43,905 nt of DNA from Bacteroidia bacterium (GTDB taxonomy: Bacteria > Bacteroidota > Bacteroidia > NS11-12g > UBA955), in contig DASWYG010000025.1 of assembly GCA_036405075.1 (NCBI GenBank), positions 1-43,905 on the forward strand. The letters run 5' to 3'. Positions 3,644-38,580 of this stretch are shown piece by piece. Numbering within the stretch: position 1 is the first letter of the stretch; every line of letters starts with the position of its first letter. The notes under the pieces were generated by a model. The model was not told the DNA's origin and made no database searches. It saw only the letters and a list, made by a program, of their open reading frames with translations. A program made the translations under genes and the position numbers.

Positions 3644-3848
3644 ATCTTGGGTCGTTGGGGTTCAAGTAATTTGCAATAGTTGGTAGAAACGCCACCATGC
3701 CACCGGCAAACAATTTTTTAATGAGTGCCACATCGAAGTGAAACGGGTCAATCCCTTGCATCAACTCGTATGCATAAAGTGAGATGACAGTTGAAAGGAA
3801 ATGTTTCACGAAATTTCCTTTGAGTGTATCAAAAAATGTCTTTTTCAT
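3627..3848 (-). CDS. Holin-like small membrane protein (73 aa, two hydrophobic segments)
   Basis: Hydrophobic stretches FLSTVISLYAY and LFAGGMVAFLPTIANYL, a basic C-terminus, and a position directly upstream of the endolysin gene. Confidence 0.55.
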   Translation of the reverse strand: MKKTFFDTLKGNFVKHFLSTVISLYAYELMQGIDPFHFDVALIKKLFAGGMVAFLPTIANYLNPNDPRFGKKK

Positions 3849-22978: not shown

Positions 22979-23232
22979 TAAACTTTTAATAAAACAAATA
23001 ATTCCAAAGTATCTACCGAGAAGCACGATTTCAAACAAGGCCGTCTTTCCGGCTGCCATATCCATCTGCAATTGATGAACAAAACTCATTAATACTATCA
23101 ATGAGGGGGCTTAAATAACTACGGGGCTAACACTGTGTACTTTAGTGATACTTCTCAAATGTACATCAATCAGAGTTTCGAACCTCAGATCAGTTTCATT
23201 TAAGGATTTCGCCCCTTTCTTAAAAATTGTTG

Positions 23233-23303
23233 AGCTGAGTAATGGAATCGAACCATTTTAAACAGGGTTGCAATCTGTGACCTAGCCACTCGGACAACTC
23301 AGC
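23233..23303 (-). tRNA. tRNA-Cys(GCA): tRNA-Cys (anticodon GCA), non-canonical
   Basis: 71 nt: GCTGAGT TG TCCG AGTGGCT AGGT C ACAGA TTGCAAC CCTGT TTAA AATGG TTCGATT CCATT ACTCAGC T. Supporting features are a perfect 7-bp acceptor stem, a perfect T arm with loop TTCGATT, U33 and A37, and the U73 discriminator that is a Cys identity element. Weak points are a D stem with only two G-C pairs and an A31.C39 mismatch. CCA is not encoded. Confidence 0.7.
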
Positions 23304-23327
23304 ATTTAGAGGGGAATATTTCGCCCC

Positions 23328-23504
23328 TCACCCCCACATGTTGCGGCCAGTAGGTATCGGCTGCATGTCTTTCCATGCCGTCAAGCTAAACGTGGAGACT
23401 GCATGAAACGAACATGCAAATGCCTCATGCTTTACTCTCAGGGCTTCTATTGCATATACACCCGTATTGATTACCGACATCTCGGCATTGTCCGACATCT
23501 CCAT
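23328..23504 (-). CDS. Possible 58-codon ORF with outlier composition; the same stretch could instead be a structured leader RNA
   Basis: Hand translation gives MEMSDNAEMSVINTGVYAIEALRVKHEAFACSFHAVSTFSLTAWKDMQPIPTGRNMWG. The sequence is visibly more G+C-rich than its neighbours and is packed with GCATG/CATGC palindromes and hairpins. Confidence 0.3.
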   Translation of the reverse strand: MEMSDNAEMSVINTGVYAIEALRVKHEAFACSFHAVSTFSLTAWKDMQPIPTGRNMWG

Positions 23505-23572
23505 TTACCCGGCTCTTCACCGGGTATCTTTTTTAATCATTTATCGGTCAAATAAAGAACGTAAAAGGGACA

Positions 23573-33856: not shown

Positions 33857-34053
33857 AATGTTTCTATTTCGTTGTTATAAATCTTTTCTAAAAGGACAAT
33901 ATTTTTAGGTTTTTGATTATCTAAACCCAAATAAATTGCTTCTTTAATACTGCTTACCTTTGAATCTGAAAAATGTTTTTCCATGTTCTCAAGCAACTCG
34001 TTTCTTAGTTTCTCATCCTTTACGGATTCAAACCATTGTTTAATTGTTTTCAT
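33853..34053 (-). CDS. Hypothetical protein (66 aa)
   Basis: ORF, ATGA-coupled. Confidence 0.55.
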   Translation of the reverse strand: MKTIKQWFESVKDEKLRNELLENMEKHFSDSKVSSIKEAIYLGLDNQKPKNIVLLEKIYNNEIETL

Positions 34054-35582: not shown

Positions 35583-36406
35583 AACATCATTTGTTCATCG
35601 GTGAAAGTCATTACATCTACTGTATTCGTTTTGAGATACTCTTTCATTGCGAGATGTTTCACAACGATGTCATTTGAATCCGCACTCATCAATGAGATCT
35701 CAAGTGGAGTTTTACCGATTCTTGATGTTTTGAGTGCTTGTTCTTTCAGGTCAATTCGTTCAGCTTGTGCCGGATCAATCAATTCGTTTTTTATAAAGAA
35801 GTTCCAGGCGACATCATTTTTATCGTAGAATGGCGTATTGTCTGAATTTATTTGTTCTATGAAATAGTGAATGTAATATCTACGTGATGCTGCTCTTTCA
35901 TTGAATCTAAGTTGTTTCACTTCGTGTTTTTTACTCATCTCATCGTTGTATTTCTCTTTTAAAATCCTATTCATTTCGTCGTTTTGGTAACGAATGAATC
36001 CGTTTAGTATCTCTGACACATACAGCGCACTGAAGTTGTTGTAAACCTTAACATCAAGTGGTTTTTTATTAATATCCTTCAACACTCCAATCATACTTTT
36101 ATTGATCGCCAAATACAGTTGCTCGATGGTCAGTTCCGAGTAAAGAGTTTTGATGTGATTACTTAAAATAATCAACTCTTCATTGCTCAGCGGATCTTTA
36201 ATTCCAAGAACAGTTCTCCAACAAGTGATGAAGATGGAAATCTTGGTATCAAAGACGATCTCTTCGAGTTCACTTATTTTCGGGTGGATTGTTGATTGGT
36301 ACAATTCCAAGTCGGCCTTGGATTTGATCCACTGCGGCGTCTCCATGTTTTGCTCTAAGGAAATTGTCGACTGTACTGAGGTTGTCTGTGATAGTTGCTT
36401 TTCCAT
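35579..36406 (-). CDS. Replication-module protein of unknown function (255-275 aa)
   Basis: The only in-frame starts, at 36406 and 36346, both lie inside the upstream gene. Confidence 0.55.
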   Translation of the reverse strand: MEKQLSQTTSVQSTISLEQNMETPQWIKSKADLELYQSTIHPKISELEEIVFDTKISIFITCWRTVLGIKDPLSNEELIILSNHIKTLYSELTIEQLYLAINKSMIGVLKDINKKPLDVKVYNNFSALYVSEILNGFIRYQNDEMNRILKEKYNDEMSKKHEVKQLRFNERAASRRYYIHYFIEQINSDNTPFYDKNDVAWNFFIKNELIDPAQAERIDLKEQALKTSRIGKTPLEISLMSADSNDIVVKHLAMKEYLKTNTVDVMTFTDEQMML

Positions 36407-37091
36407 TATTGTGATTTTTACTAAAATTTTTTTCGTTGTTTTTCCAAGTGATTAGTCGTCTTGAGATTTCGAATGTTGATTCTTTTTCGAAGCGCATTTT
36501 TTTCCCGTTTTCATTCATTTCGGTCCAGTACATGAAAAACGCTTTAAGCATGTCAACTGAATAAGCTTCTCTGAATGGTTTTAATTTTTCTTTGAATACC
36601 AACTGTCGATCTTCAATTGTGAGTGGCAAAATCTTATTTTGCCCTTTATCTTTATTATCTTCTTCTAATTCTAATTCTTTTTCTTCTTCTTTATTGGCTT
36701 TTTTTGGCTTTCCGTTAGGTATACGGTCGGTTAGCGGTCGGTTAGCGGTCGGTTTTTCTCCCTGTGTTTTCAAGTGTTTCGGCCTACCTCCTTTTTTGCC
36801 ATTATCTGAATTTTTACTAGAAATATGTTGCCTTTCTTCTAGTTGTTCATCAAGAAATTTGATTGATAAAAAACCTTCGTTAACCGAAAAATAGCGGTCG
36901 GTTAATTCCTGTAAAGCGGTCGGTTTTTTATATCTTCGATTAACATCTTCGATGGATAGTTTTCCATCCCTTTGCCAATAAAGTGCGCAAATACTAATAA
37001 ACAATCCTTGTGCTTCAAATGATTCAACTGAAATATCTCCAGTTAACCATTCTGTTGGTATAAATTTAAAATATGGAAGTCCTTTTGCCAT
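36270..37091 (-). CDS. DUF1376-type replication initiator candidate
   Basis: The N-terminus MAKGLPYFKFIPTEWLTGDISVESFEAQGLFISICALYWQ fits the DUF1376 signature as recalled from memory. The gene contains iterons. Confidence 0.6.
   Translation of the reverse strand: MAKGLPYFKFIPTEWLTGDISVESFEAQGLFISICALYWQRDGKLSIEDVNRRYKKPTALQELTDRYFSVNEGFLSIKFLDEQLEERQHISSKNSDNGKKGGRPKHLKTQGEKPTANRPLTDRIPNGKPKKANKEEEKELELEEDNKDKGQNKILPLTIEDRQLVFKEKLKPFREAYSVDMLKAFFMYWTEMNENGKKMRFEKESTFEISRRLITWKNNEKNFSKNHNNGKATITDNLSTVDNFLRAKHGDAAVDQIQGRLGIVPINNPPENK
36723..36754. repeat. Origin-like iterons: three tandem copies of (A)GCGGTCGGTT with an 11-bp period
   Basis: ACGGTCGGTT AGCGGTCGGTT AGCGGTCGGTT, next to a strongly pyrimidine-skewed A+T-rich stretch at roughly 36640-36720. 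Confidence 0.8.
36881..36925. repeat. Two further iteron copies 22 bp apart, plus the inverted repeat TTAACCG/CGGTTAA
   Basis: AGCGGTCGGTT at 36893..36903 and 36915..36925. The arm TTAACCG at 36881..36887 pairs with CGGTTAA at 36899..36905. Confidence 0.75.
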
Positions 37092-37367
37092 TTATTGCAG
37101 TTGATTTTTTATATACCTATTAACTATCCACCCTTTTTCTCTTGCTTCATTTGGATTGAGTTCGATGTATTGATGACACCTGAAACACACTGCCATAAAG
37201 AAGTCGATATTTGTAAGTAAATTTCCGATCCTACCTGCTTTGTGATGAACTTGAGTGGATTTATTTCCACATCGTTCGCATTTAGGTTTTAGAGTCAAGA
37301 ATTCAAGTCTTAGTTTTGAATATTCTCGGTTTTGGGCTGCACGTTTCTTGCTTACTTTTCGTATCAT
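37092..37367 (-). CDS. HNH/NinG-like zinc-binding nuclease candidate (91 aa)
   Basis: CERCG...VHHKAGR...VCFRCHQYIE, that is two Cys pairs plus His residues, with a basic N-terminus. Confidence 0.5.
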   Translation of the reverse strand: MIRKVSKKRAAQNREYSKLRLEFLTLKPKCERCGNKSTQVHHKAGRIGNLLTNIDFFMAVCFRCHQYIELNPNEAREKGWIVNRYIKNQLQ

Positions 37368-37457
37368 TTTTGTTGAATTGGTGAAAGAATGCCAGTCTCT
37401 TCCCGGCTGTCTCGTCTCATTTAATTCATCATTTAGCTAATACCCTGCTTCGATGTT

Positions 37458-37507
37458 GTGAGTGTGGAGGAATCGAACCTCTCATTACGCCGACCGTATC
37501 ACACTCA
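37458..37507 (-). ncRNA. tRNA-like minihelix (acceptor stem, T arm and one short hairpin, with no anticodon arm)
   Basis: TGAGTGT GA TACG-GTCGG-CGTA ATG AGAGG TTCGATT CCTCC ACACTCA C. It has a perfect 7-bp acceptor stem, shares the 11-mer GGTTCGATTCC with the tRNA-Cys, and is only 50 nt long. Confidence 0.4.
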
Positions 37508-37519
37508 ATTGGGAGGTAG

Positions 37520-37795
37520 TTAAGAAAGAATGTTGACTGATCCTTCAACGATTAGTTGTTGGAATACTTTTGGTGGATTATGAGTGCCTCTCGCTTCACG
37601 TTGCTCAATAATTTCTCTTATTGCTGCATTGTGAAAGTAATCCTTACCATTGATTTTGCCACGATGTTTCAGTTCTTGGCCAATTTCCAATCCTTTGTCA
37701 CTGACAACTTGTACAATTGCTTCGTTGTCACCTTGTAGCTTCCACGACATAAATTGTGGATAGCCTGATCTTGCGTCTGTATTGATTGTTTCCAT
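37520..37795 (-). CDS. Hypothetical protein (91 aa)
   Basis: ORF in the operon. Confidence 0.55.
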   Translation of the reverse strand: METINTDARSGYPQFMSWKLQGDNEAIVQVVSDKGLEIGQELKHRGKINGKDYFHNAAIREIIEQREARGTHNPPKVFQQLIVEGSVNILS

Positions 37796-37798
37796 TTT

Positions 37799-37993
37799 TT
37801 ATTTACTTGCCTTGTAATTTTGAAGTTTGATGAACCTTACCCAAGTGTTAAAGTCAGGTCTTTTATTTGGGTAAGTTGATTGTCTAATGCCAGTGATGTA
37901 ACTGATTTGAGGTTGGCTCTTCTTTGGTCTTAATGCCAGTGATATAACAATGACATCAAACACCAGTAATCCTAAAATGTGAATTAGGTTCAT
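37799..37993 (-). CDS. Small membrane protein (64 aa)
   Basis: N-terminal TM segment LIHILGLLVFDVIVISLAL. ATGA-coupled. Confidence 0.5.
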   Translation of the reverse strand: MNLIHILGLLVFDVIVISLALRPKKSQPQISYITGIRQSTYPNKRPDFNTWVRFIKLQNYKASK

Positions 37994-38580
37994 GATTTAA
38001 TTACCTCCAATCTTTTTAATTCAAAGAAACATTTCGCACAAGCAATAACGTCATTTAAAGCATCGTGAGCGCCGTCAAACGAAGTTTTAAATAACACATT
38101 GTGAAGCTCTTCTAGTTTTGGCCATTTAAAAGACGCATACCCGTTTTGGTTGGGTATTTTGCAAAAGTTTGTTGATGACTGCATTGTACAAACCTTTATC
38201 GGTTTTGTCTCTGACTTAAGGTTAAGTCTGATATATTCTGCACCAACAATTTTTTCATCAAATGCCATGTTATGGGCAATTAAATGAGTGCAATTGCTTA
38301 AATATGAATTAAACTCATTGATTGCCTCTAAAATAGGAATTCCCAACTCCAATGATTTTTCAGTTGAATAACCGTTGTCAATCCAAAATTTTTCATTTGG
38401 AATAACCCAATTATCGGGTTTAATAAGGGCGCAGTACTTATGGATAATCTCACCTTGTTCATTGAATACAGCAAAGGCTAATTGAATTATTCTTGGCCAG
38501 TTATCTACGCTGCTCACTGGAGCTTTCCAATCTTTTGGAAGTCCATTTGTTTCCGTATCGAAAAATAAATATTTGTTCAT
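37990..38580 (-). CDS. DEDDh 3'-5' exonuclease (DnaQ-like)
   Basis: Exo I FFDTETNG, Exo II HNMAFDEKIV, Exo III HDALNDV. Confidence 0.8.
   Translation of the reverse strand: MNKYLFFDTETNGLPKDWKAPVSSVDNWPRIIQLAFAVFNEQGEIIHKYCALIKPDNWVIPNEKFWIDNGYSTEKSLELGIPILEAINEFNSYLSNCTHLIAHNMAFDEKIVGAEYIRLNLKSETKPIKVCTMQSSTNFCKIPNQNGYASFKWPKLEELHNVLFKTSFDGAHDALNDVIACAKCFFELKRLEVIKS

Follow-up and report, generated by a model that had tools for sequence, protein, structure and literature searches.

Here we describe a 50-nucleotide (nt) element that resembles a transfer RNA (tRNA) without its anticodon arm and lies at positions 37458..37507, on the minus strand, of a 43,905-bp phage contig. The contig (DASWYG010000025.1, C25) belongs to the 455-contig, 3.63-Mb assembly GCA_036405075.1 of a Bacteroidia bacterium; it was analysed whole and is referred to here as the window. 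The element is placed between two genes of the early operon, in the sense orientation, and we tentatively propose, with a little less than even confidence, that it is a tRNA-derived processing signal cut by ribonuclease (RNase) P and RNase Z, similar to the t-elements of plant mitochondria. An earlier note on this DNA had suggested a cut site for these enzymes, among other roles. That suggestion holds as the best-supported mechanism, with the top half of a tRNA intact, the sense strand and the host enzymes in its favour, the support being of anatomy and analogy.

Read on the minus strand from 37507 to 37458, the element is TGAGTGT-GA-TACG/GTCGG/CGTA-ATG-AGAGG/TTCGATT/CCTCC-ACACTCA-C, that is, an acceptor 5′ strand, the dinucleotide GA, a small hairpin, an AUG linker, a T arm, the acceptor 3′ strand and a discriminator C. 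All the sequence features that the earlier note had claimed are present on this strand. The acceptor strands TGAGTGT (37507-37501) and ACACTCA (37465-37459, with the discriminator at 37458) form the perfect 7-bp stem that had been described, with Watson-Crick pairs at 7/7 positions; CCA is not encoded, the next bases being AAC. The end of the stem is sharply defined because the U at position -1 and the A at position -2 do not pair with C73 and A74 and are thus unable to extend it. In the D-arm-like hairpin TACG-GTCGG-CGTA (37498-37486), a stem of 4 bp closes a loop of 5 nt that includes GG. As for the T arm, AGAGG-TTCGATT-CCTCC (37482-37466), the claimed sequence, the consensus loop and the tRNA signature GGTTCGATTCC (37479-37469) are there, but the outermost pair of the T stem is an A·C mismatch.

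The minimum free energy (MFE) fold given by RNAfold is the proposed structure (-17.4 kcal/mol) and is identical to the centroid. In the predicted fold, G8 pairs with the last C of the T stem, giving 8 + 4 bp instead of 7 + 5; either way the acceptor/T stack amounts to 12 bp, as in the 7 + 5 of a tRNA. The modelled structure consists of standard pairs throughout (15/15). No predicted fold contains an anticodon arm, and the T stem is separated from the acceptor 5′ strand by just 18 nt. The structure is little affected by its surroundings: acceptor pairs 2-7 have probabilities of 0.76-1.0 when flanks of 0, 30, 100, 200 and 400 nt per side are included, and the MFE structure keeps the fold of the element in four of these five contexts.

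What could such an element do in an operon? Once the early operon is transcribed, the element would fold as a tRNA-derived structure within the messenger RNA (mRNA). The host RNase P would then cut directly 5′ of the U at 37507 and RNase Z would cut past the discriminator C at 37458. These two cuts would split the early transcript, parting a small orphan gene from the genes for an HNH endonuclease and the replication initiator, and would free a tRNA-like RNA of about 50 nt. The GG of the hairpin could dock on the T loop and form an elbow, which is a guess. This reading is favoured because the element keeps exactly what the end-trimming enzymes read, namely the 12-bp stack, the consensus T loop and the hairpin. 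RNase P binds the stack of T stem-loop and acceptor stem, and its point of reference for measuring is the elbow rather than the anticodon arm (PMC4919913). The genes for both enzymes are found in the host assembly, a draft that is 95% complete by marker genes: a type A RNase P RNA (189.8 bits) and an RNase Z that scores 307 bits, over the curated cut-off. ARAGORN yields 32 tRNA genes in the assembly and about two thirds of them lack an encoded CCA (3′ ends read by eye); the tRNA-Cys of the phage encodes no CCA either. Because RNase Z is present and most tRNA genes lack CCA, endonucleolytic 3′ trimming and CCA addition are presumably routine in this cell.

The location of the element also speaks for processing, because it is on the coding strand and in the sole large gap of a packed operon. 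The early genes around it are all on the minus strand. As the earlier note claimed, the gap 37368-37519 exceeds all others in the early operon: it measures 152 nt, and a seemingly larger gap of 193 nt further down the operon (33857-34049) is occupied by a 66-amino acid (aa) open reading frame. The stop codon of the upstream gene is 12 nt before the element and the start codon of the downstream gene is 90 nt past it.

The element is tRNA-derived or tRNA-mimicking and not a chance hairpin. We say so because of its combined features, the 11-mer shared with a tRNA and its rarity in an assembly-wide scan, and not because of its energy alone. The 11-mer GGTTCGANTCC, which the earlier note had reported as common to the element and the tRNA-Cys, indeed occurs twice in the window, where shuffled sequences gave an expectation of 0.05 and only 1/100 shuffles reached two copies. 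For the scan, both strands of the assembly (7.3 Mb) were searched for a TTCRANN loop on a stem with at least 4/5 pairs, abutted by a strand of 7 nt for which an upstream partner gives perfect Watson-Crick pairing. This resulted in 52 matches, mostly with tRNA-like interiors of 39-56 nt. The interior was shorter than 38 nt in eight of the 52, the element among them, and the 11-mer was absent from the other seven. A like scan that allowed G-U pairs, run over the 846 kb of fetched loci, identified nothing comparable.

Several results weigh against the proposed processing and are gathered here. The fold energy is mildly unusual: the z-score was -1.59, with 14/200 shuffles as good, and in a rerun -1.89, with 9/200. 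One pair of the T stem is A·C, position 8 is G, not U, and the loop of the hairpin has 5 nt, compared with 8-9 nt in the canonical D loop (PMC4919913). Conservation was not detected. DNA patterns of the hairpin joined to the T arm, exact or degenerate, had no match in either viral_contigs or genome_contigs, and a covariance model built from the single element sequence, applied to 125 host-family genomes, found nothing in the other 124 better than E 0.63. Nor is such an element present in the loci that were reached by way of the exonuclease, the initiator or the HNH gene. In the HNH relatives (L105-L107, 53-54% identical) there is no upstream gap, as the gene starts no more than 2 nt from the end of the upstream gene or overlaps it; therefore the element is not a standing part of an HNH cassette. 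The earlier note had considered that absence from all related phages would argue against a function. This absence holds for distant relatives, as none of 24 records of terminase relatives matches the covariance model, but near-identical relatives exist: the orphan and the HNH proteins each have one cluster mate, in public run assemblies, on contigs of 1,056 and 41,269 bp. Thus, in the relatives examined the element appears as a singleton without conservation or covariation. Finally, even if the element is cut, this need not be the reason for its retention.

How much does this absence tell? The terminase relatives are at most 56% identical to the window in the terminase, and 12 of the 24 records are at least 90% complete. 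None of 50,697 phage records matched in blastn when the element and its surroundings (1 kb) served as the query, and a DNA search of the host-family genomes returned two short spurious matches only. The loci found through the initiator or the exonuclease (L002-L104) contain no comparable element, and a second early gene in common with the window was present in a single locus; in the initiator relatives L002-L011 the N-terminal domain alone is in common, and there is no tRNA-like element. Little can be concluded from absence in distant relatives, whose early regions are mosaic.

Looser searches brought up some possible cousins. A pattern in which the acceptor stem and the T-loop motif were fixed and the interior was left at 18-47 nt matched once in genome_contigs (L108), once in viral_contigs (L109) and four times in metagenome_contigs (L110-L113). 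Three of the four metagenome matches are called as tRNAs by ARAGORN, and L112 is a shortened ortholog of L110. At the 16 positions left free by the pattern, L108 is identical to the element at 9 and L109 at 8, compared with 3-5 for L110-L113. With p values of roughly 0.01-0.03, uncorrected for six comparisons, this is a weak hint that L108 and L109 may be kin of the element in which the top half was kept while the bottom half varied. Across 30 sources searched with the covariance model, E values below 0.01 were obtained, besides the element itself, only for L108, L109 and L113, which had been selected by the pattern. None of the six loci shows protein similarity to the window. The L108 element (66 nt, positions 3756-3821, minus strand, in the Saprospiraceae metagenome-assembled genome contig JAHDBE010000026.1) has the same acceptor stem, a near-identical T arm, a D arm with AGTGGATA and a stub at the place of the anticodon arm; ARAGORN makes no call on it. 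It is on the coding strand and fills a gap of 187 nt, the sole large one in an operon of small genes compactly arranged on one strand; the operon encodes, among others, a DNA methyltransferase. The processing reading gains from this locus, because an unrelated phage-like operon of Bacteroidota has an uncalled tRNA-like element in a like layout. L109 (3148-3538, in an IMG/VR viral contig of 94,826 bp) is called by ARAGORN as a permuted transfer-messenger RNA (tmRNA) with the tag DNYNVVDYTHVA, a call that is doubtful. A tRNA-like element of 68 nt, with no stable anticodon stem, makes up its 3′ part, and the acceptor stem and the tail ACACTCACAAC are as in the element of the window.

A side observation concerns the anticodon arm in the metagenome matches. 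L110:1334-1404 and L112:200-265 are orthologous phage tRNA-like genes with identical flanks. The former has an anticodon loop of 7 nt and is called tRNA-Ala (AGC), and the latter, on a 174.5-kb contig, has a 3-bp stem with a 4-nt loop. The anticodon arm is therefore seen shrinking between close relatives.

The element is not a canonical tRNA gene, as judged with RF00005 and ARAGORN. In the window ARAGORN calls only the tRNA-Cys at 23232-23303, and it leaves the element uncalled at default and at lowered bacterial settings. Rfam likewise retrieves the tRNA-Cys only, both at gathering thresholds and at E ≤ 1 over the whole window. When a 301-nt segment was searched against Rfam, the best match on the strand of the element was tRNA-Sec, with 18.3 bits (gathering threshold 47) and E 0.34. 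An acceptor stem and a T arm with a TTCRANN loop are shared with canonical and phage tRNAs (RF00005), as are a discriminator base and a 3′ end without encoded CCA, whereas the anticodon arm is missing, the D-like loop is reduced and the detection scores fall short. Three other assignments were tried and rejected. The 'mtRNA-Arg' reported by ARAGORN in mitochondrial mode with lowered thresholds is spurious, since the T arm was taken as an anticodon arm. A plus-strand 'Plastid-ycf2 5′UTR' (Rfam, 19.8 bits compared with a gathering threshold of 65.7, E 0.11) is the antisense image of the T arm. The tRNA-like domain of a tmRNA was also discarded, as pair 3-70 is A3-U70 and not G3·U70 and no tmRNA was found by ARAGORN, in the window or in the gap, or by Rfam.

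One alternative that deserves weight, though we regard it as rather unlikely, is that the element is an inert relic, in line with the decayed tRNA gene listed in the earlier note: a former phage tRNA gene from which the anticodon arm and most of the D loop were deleted, and which has no role and has not decayed further. The phage carries a real tRNA-Cys with a T-arm-like remnant about 45 nt downstream of it, terminase relatives carry tRNAs together with tRNA-like genes that ARAGORN does not call, and tRNA-model matches occur in 5 of the 24 terminase-relative records. The singleton status of the element would fit as well, and so would the small HNH endonuclease gene adjoining it; small HNH genes are mobile and often found among phage tRNA genes. 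Decay, however, would be expected to scatter mismatches, yet standard pairing holds for 15/15 modelled pairs and the T loop follows the consensus perfectly. A relic would also have undergone two separate trims, one leaving a 5-nt loop and the other removing a whole arm, and yet shows a clean three-way junction. Beyond the 11-mer there is no extended likeness to the tRNA-Cys cassette, with a local alignment score of 22 compared with 18.0 ± 2.4 for shuffles. In any case, a transcribed relic would remain a substrate of RNase P and RNase Z.

The tRNA-Cys island offers a further comparison. A hairpin, GCCGG-GAAGAGA-CTGGC, followed by AUUCUUUC, is placed 50 nt downstream of the element (37407-37391, minus strand) and is weakly terminator-like; a scan of 36900-38100 for terminator-like sites found no other, and the span given in the earlier note, 37391-37507, takes it in together with the element. 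A motif scan for hairpins with a GC stem and a purine loop of the GAARRR type found five in the window, all on the minus (coding) strand: three in the tRNA-Cys island (23040-23526), one at 25682-25661 and the one at 37407-37391. Only 0.4 would be expected and 0/200 simulations reached five, a generous statistic since the motif was defined post hoc. Purine-loop hairpins thus flank the real tRNA-Cys, and one also follows the tRNA-like element, a likeness that we count in favour of processing.

In the same island, the T-arm-like sequence GAGGTTCGAAACTC (23170-23195, minus strand), which holds GTTCGAAAC at 23175-23183, may be debris of a second tRNA gene. A tRNA cluster is also found in one of the terminase relatives (L187:1500-1800, minus strand, record G147), where ARAGORN calls a tRNA-Asp and a tRNA-Phe; these are flanked by two uncalled tRNA-like sequences, one of them a partial match to the Rfam tRNA model (29.6 bits).

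The small hairpin has a second peculiarity, which the earlier note had pointed out and which is confirmed: it contains CGGTCGG (37496-37490), the core of the replication iterons, the nearest of which (36917-36923) is 567 nt away. The window holds six copies of CGGTCGG, five in the iterons on the plus strand and one in the element on the minus strand, compared with 0.87 expected, and 0/100 shuffles reached six. The iterons, CGGTCGGTT, lie at 36724, 36735, 36746, 36895 and 36917 on the plus strand, inside the initiator gene. An alternative acting at the DNA level would make the hairpin a sixth, inverted site for the initiator, either an operator or an accessory of the origin, with the tRNA likeness being secondary. 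The confinement of CGGTCGG to the five iterons and the element fits this idea, as do the extension of the match with iteron 1 to a 10-mer, ATACGGTCGG, which in the hairpin is an inverted copy of 36721-36730, and the position upstream of the initiator's own transcription unit. We nevertheless consider it improbable. The site is a single copy and, while the 9-mer CGGTCGGTT is present in all five iterons, the element has CGGTCGGCG, without the invariant TT, and is thus not an iteron by sequence. No promoter-like site overlaps it (sigma-70-type scan), and no Bacteroidota -7 element TAnnTTTG was read in the gap. This alternative also gives no account of the acceptor stem or the T arm. The chance that the 50-nt element and the iteron blocks have a 10-mer in common is about 0.005, a rough, post hoc figure that we count against this alternative, and the sharing of the 10-mer is kept as an unexplained coincidence. 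As to the iterons themselves, the iteron-like repeats of the closest initiator relatives (L002, L003) differ from those of the window.

The earlier note had also raised the possibility of an attP-like tRNA fragment. An attachment (att) core, that is, a phage copy of the end of a host tRNA gene used for integration, would be expected to hold only the 3′ half, but both acceptor strands are kept here. The element resembles none of the tRNAs of the assembly, with the caveat that this draft yields only 32 of them; its longest match in the host spans 14 nt and falls in no tRNA. Neither genome_contigs (185,579 species) nor viral_contigs contains an exact copy of the 21-mer that covers the T arm and the acceptor 3′ strand. 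The reported lack of a nearby integrase proved right for the whole of C25, as the matches to PF00589 (seven) and PF00239 (three) in the assembly are all elsewhere, so that the contig carries no tyrosine or serine recombinase. A point in favour of an att core comes from a terminase relative, L185, as this provirus record terminates within a tRNA-like sequence. On balance, we hold this explanation to be extremely improbable, and the proposal of an attP-like fragment is not borne out. The L185 record (G127) stops at its end inside the tRNA-like sequence (L185:1500-1561, 28.3 bits), as is expected of a prophage in a tRNA gene.

Could the freed RNA have a role of its own? A 50-nt RNA, perhaps CCA-tailed, might act in trans as a decoy, competitor or inhibitor of enzymes that read the elbow or the body of tRNAs, such as defence nucleases that target tRNAs or enzymes that modify them; the decoy role, also raised in the earlier note, is speculative. 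The element does present a complete top half with a closed junction. The t-element RNAs of plant mitochondria accumulate and gain a non-encoded C or CCA (PMC1920247), and the anti-phage nuclease OLD of P2 removes the anticodon arms of tRNAs (PMC12445682). However, an element without an anticodon stem is also without the OLD cut site, and there is no conservation, so we see a mimic acting in trans as very improbable. A combined version, in which the arm-less tRNA body would be excised and act in trans (for example against tRNA-directed defence nucleases) while the DNA of the hairpin would serve as an extra initiator site, is in our view quite improbable too. If it were true, an arm-less tRNA body plus an initiator site would link early RNA processing to replication control.

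The closest precedent for processing by RNase P and RNase Z is found in organelles. The t-elements of plant mitochondria (PMC1920247) are non-canonical tRNA-like folds, found by means of the motif GGTTCRANYCC, whose ends coincide with mapped mRNA ends; RNase P cuts at the 5′ end and RNase Z at the 3′ end, which generates mRNA ends and a small stable RNA. Our element shares with them a non-canonical tRNA fold and the motif, since GGTTCGATTCC fits GGTTCRANYCC, as well as the location on the sense strand between genes, past a stop codon and before a start codon. In contrast, t-elements are organellar, mostly about 70 nt long and more cloverleaf-like, with mapped ends (PMC1920247), whereas the element is in a phage, has 50 nt, lacks the anticodon arm completely and is known from sequence alone. 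A bacterial parallel is secG-leuU of Escherichia coli, in which, according to PMC2241853, the order is also gene, tRNA-shaped RNA and terminator-like hairpin, and RNase P parts the mRNA from the tRNA. The difference is that leuU is a working tRNA, while the element cannot decode, and that two more genes follow the hairpin in the phage. Keyword searches of the open-access literature identified no description of a tRNA-like punctuation element inside a phage operon. Viruses hold many unclassified tRNA-like candidates (PMC10690425).

The singularity of the element has to be seen against other RNAs that copy part of a tRNA. Known tRNA mimics occur in tmRNA, Y RNAs and RNA viruses. The tRNA-like domains of tmRNA and of the bacterial and phage Y RNA (YrlA) are top-half mimics, with an acceptor stem and a T arm and with the anticodon arm replaced, and they sit in longer RNAs, with a tag frame and pseudoknots in the former and a Ro-binding stem in the latter. 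The element differs from these domains in being closed and self-contained, in having A3-U70 and in having no partner gene nearby.

What would a phage gain from the proposed cleavage? Phages would punctuate polycistronic mRNAs by means of the universal tRNA-trimming enzymes of the host, a use of tRNA-like structures in mRNAs that is already established for mitochondria. The stability and dosage of neighbouring early genes would be uncoupled, and the orphan would be parted from the nuclease and the initiator. Such a benefit for the phage is hypothetical. As a single case without conservation, the element is a testable lead rather than a finding.

With regard to the genomic context, the window proteins resemble those of Bacteroidota phages (Cellulophaga, Flavobacterium and Bacteroides phages; protein comparison). 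Upstream of the element, the minus-strand gene 37520..37795 encodes a 91-aa orphan protein that matches no PHROG or Pfam family. It has no homologue outside its own two-member cluster, and its sole match in a large protein collection is itself. Its predicted structure is uninformative, with a confidence score (predicted local distance difference test, pLDDT) of 40, and comparison with the Atlas retrieved generic small look-alikes only. Downstream of the element, also on the minus strand, 37092..37367 encodes a 91-aa HNH endonuclease (phrog_740, E 4.4e-11), for which the Pfam HNH score of 17.4 bits is under the family cut-off. This gene abuts 36270..37091, on the same strand, which PHROG matches identify as a replication initiator or primosomal-type gene and which carries the iterons. 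Finally, in the protein collection all entries for the exact HNH protein (37092-37367) derive from run assemblies, whereas the orphan next to it has an NCBI entry too. The deposited record may therefore lack an annotation of this small gene.

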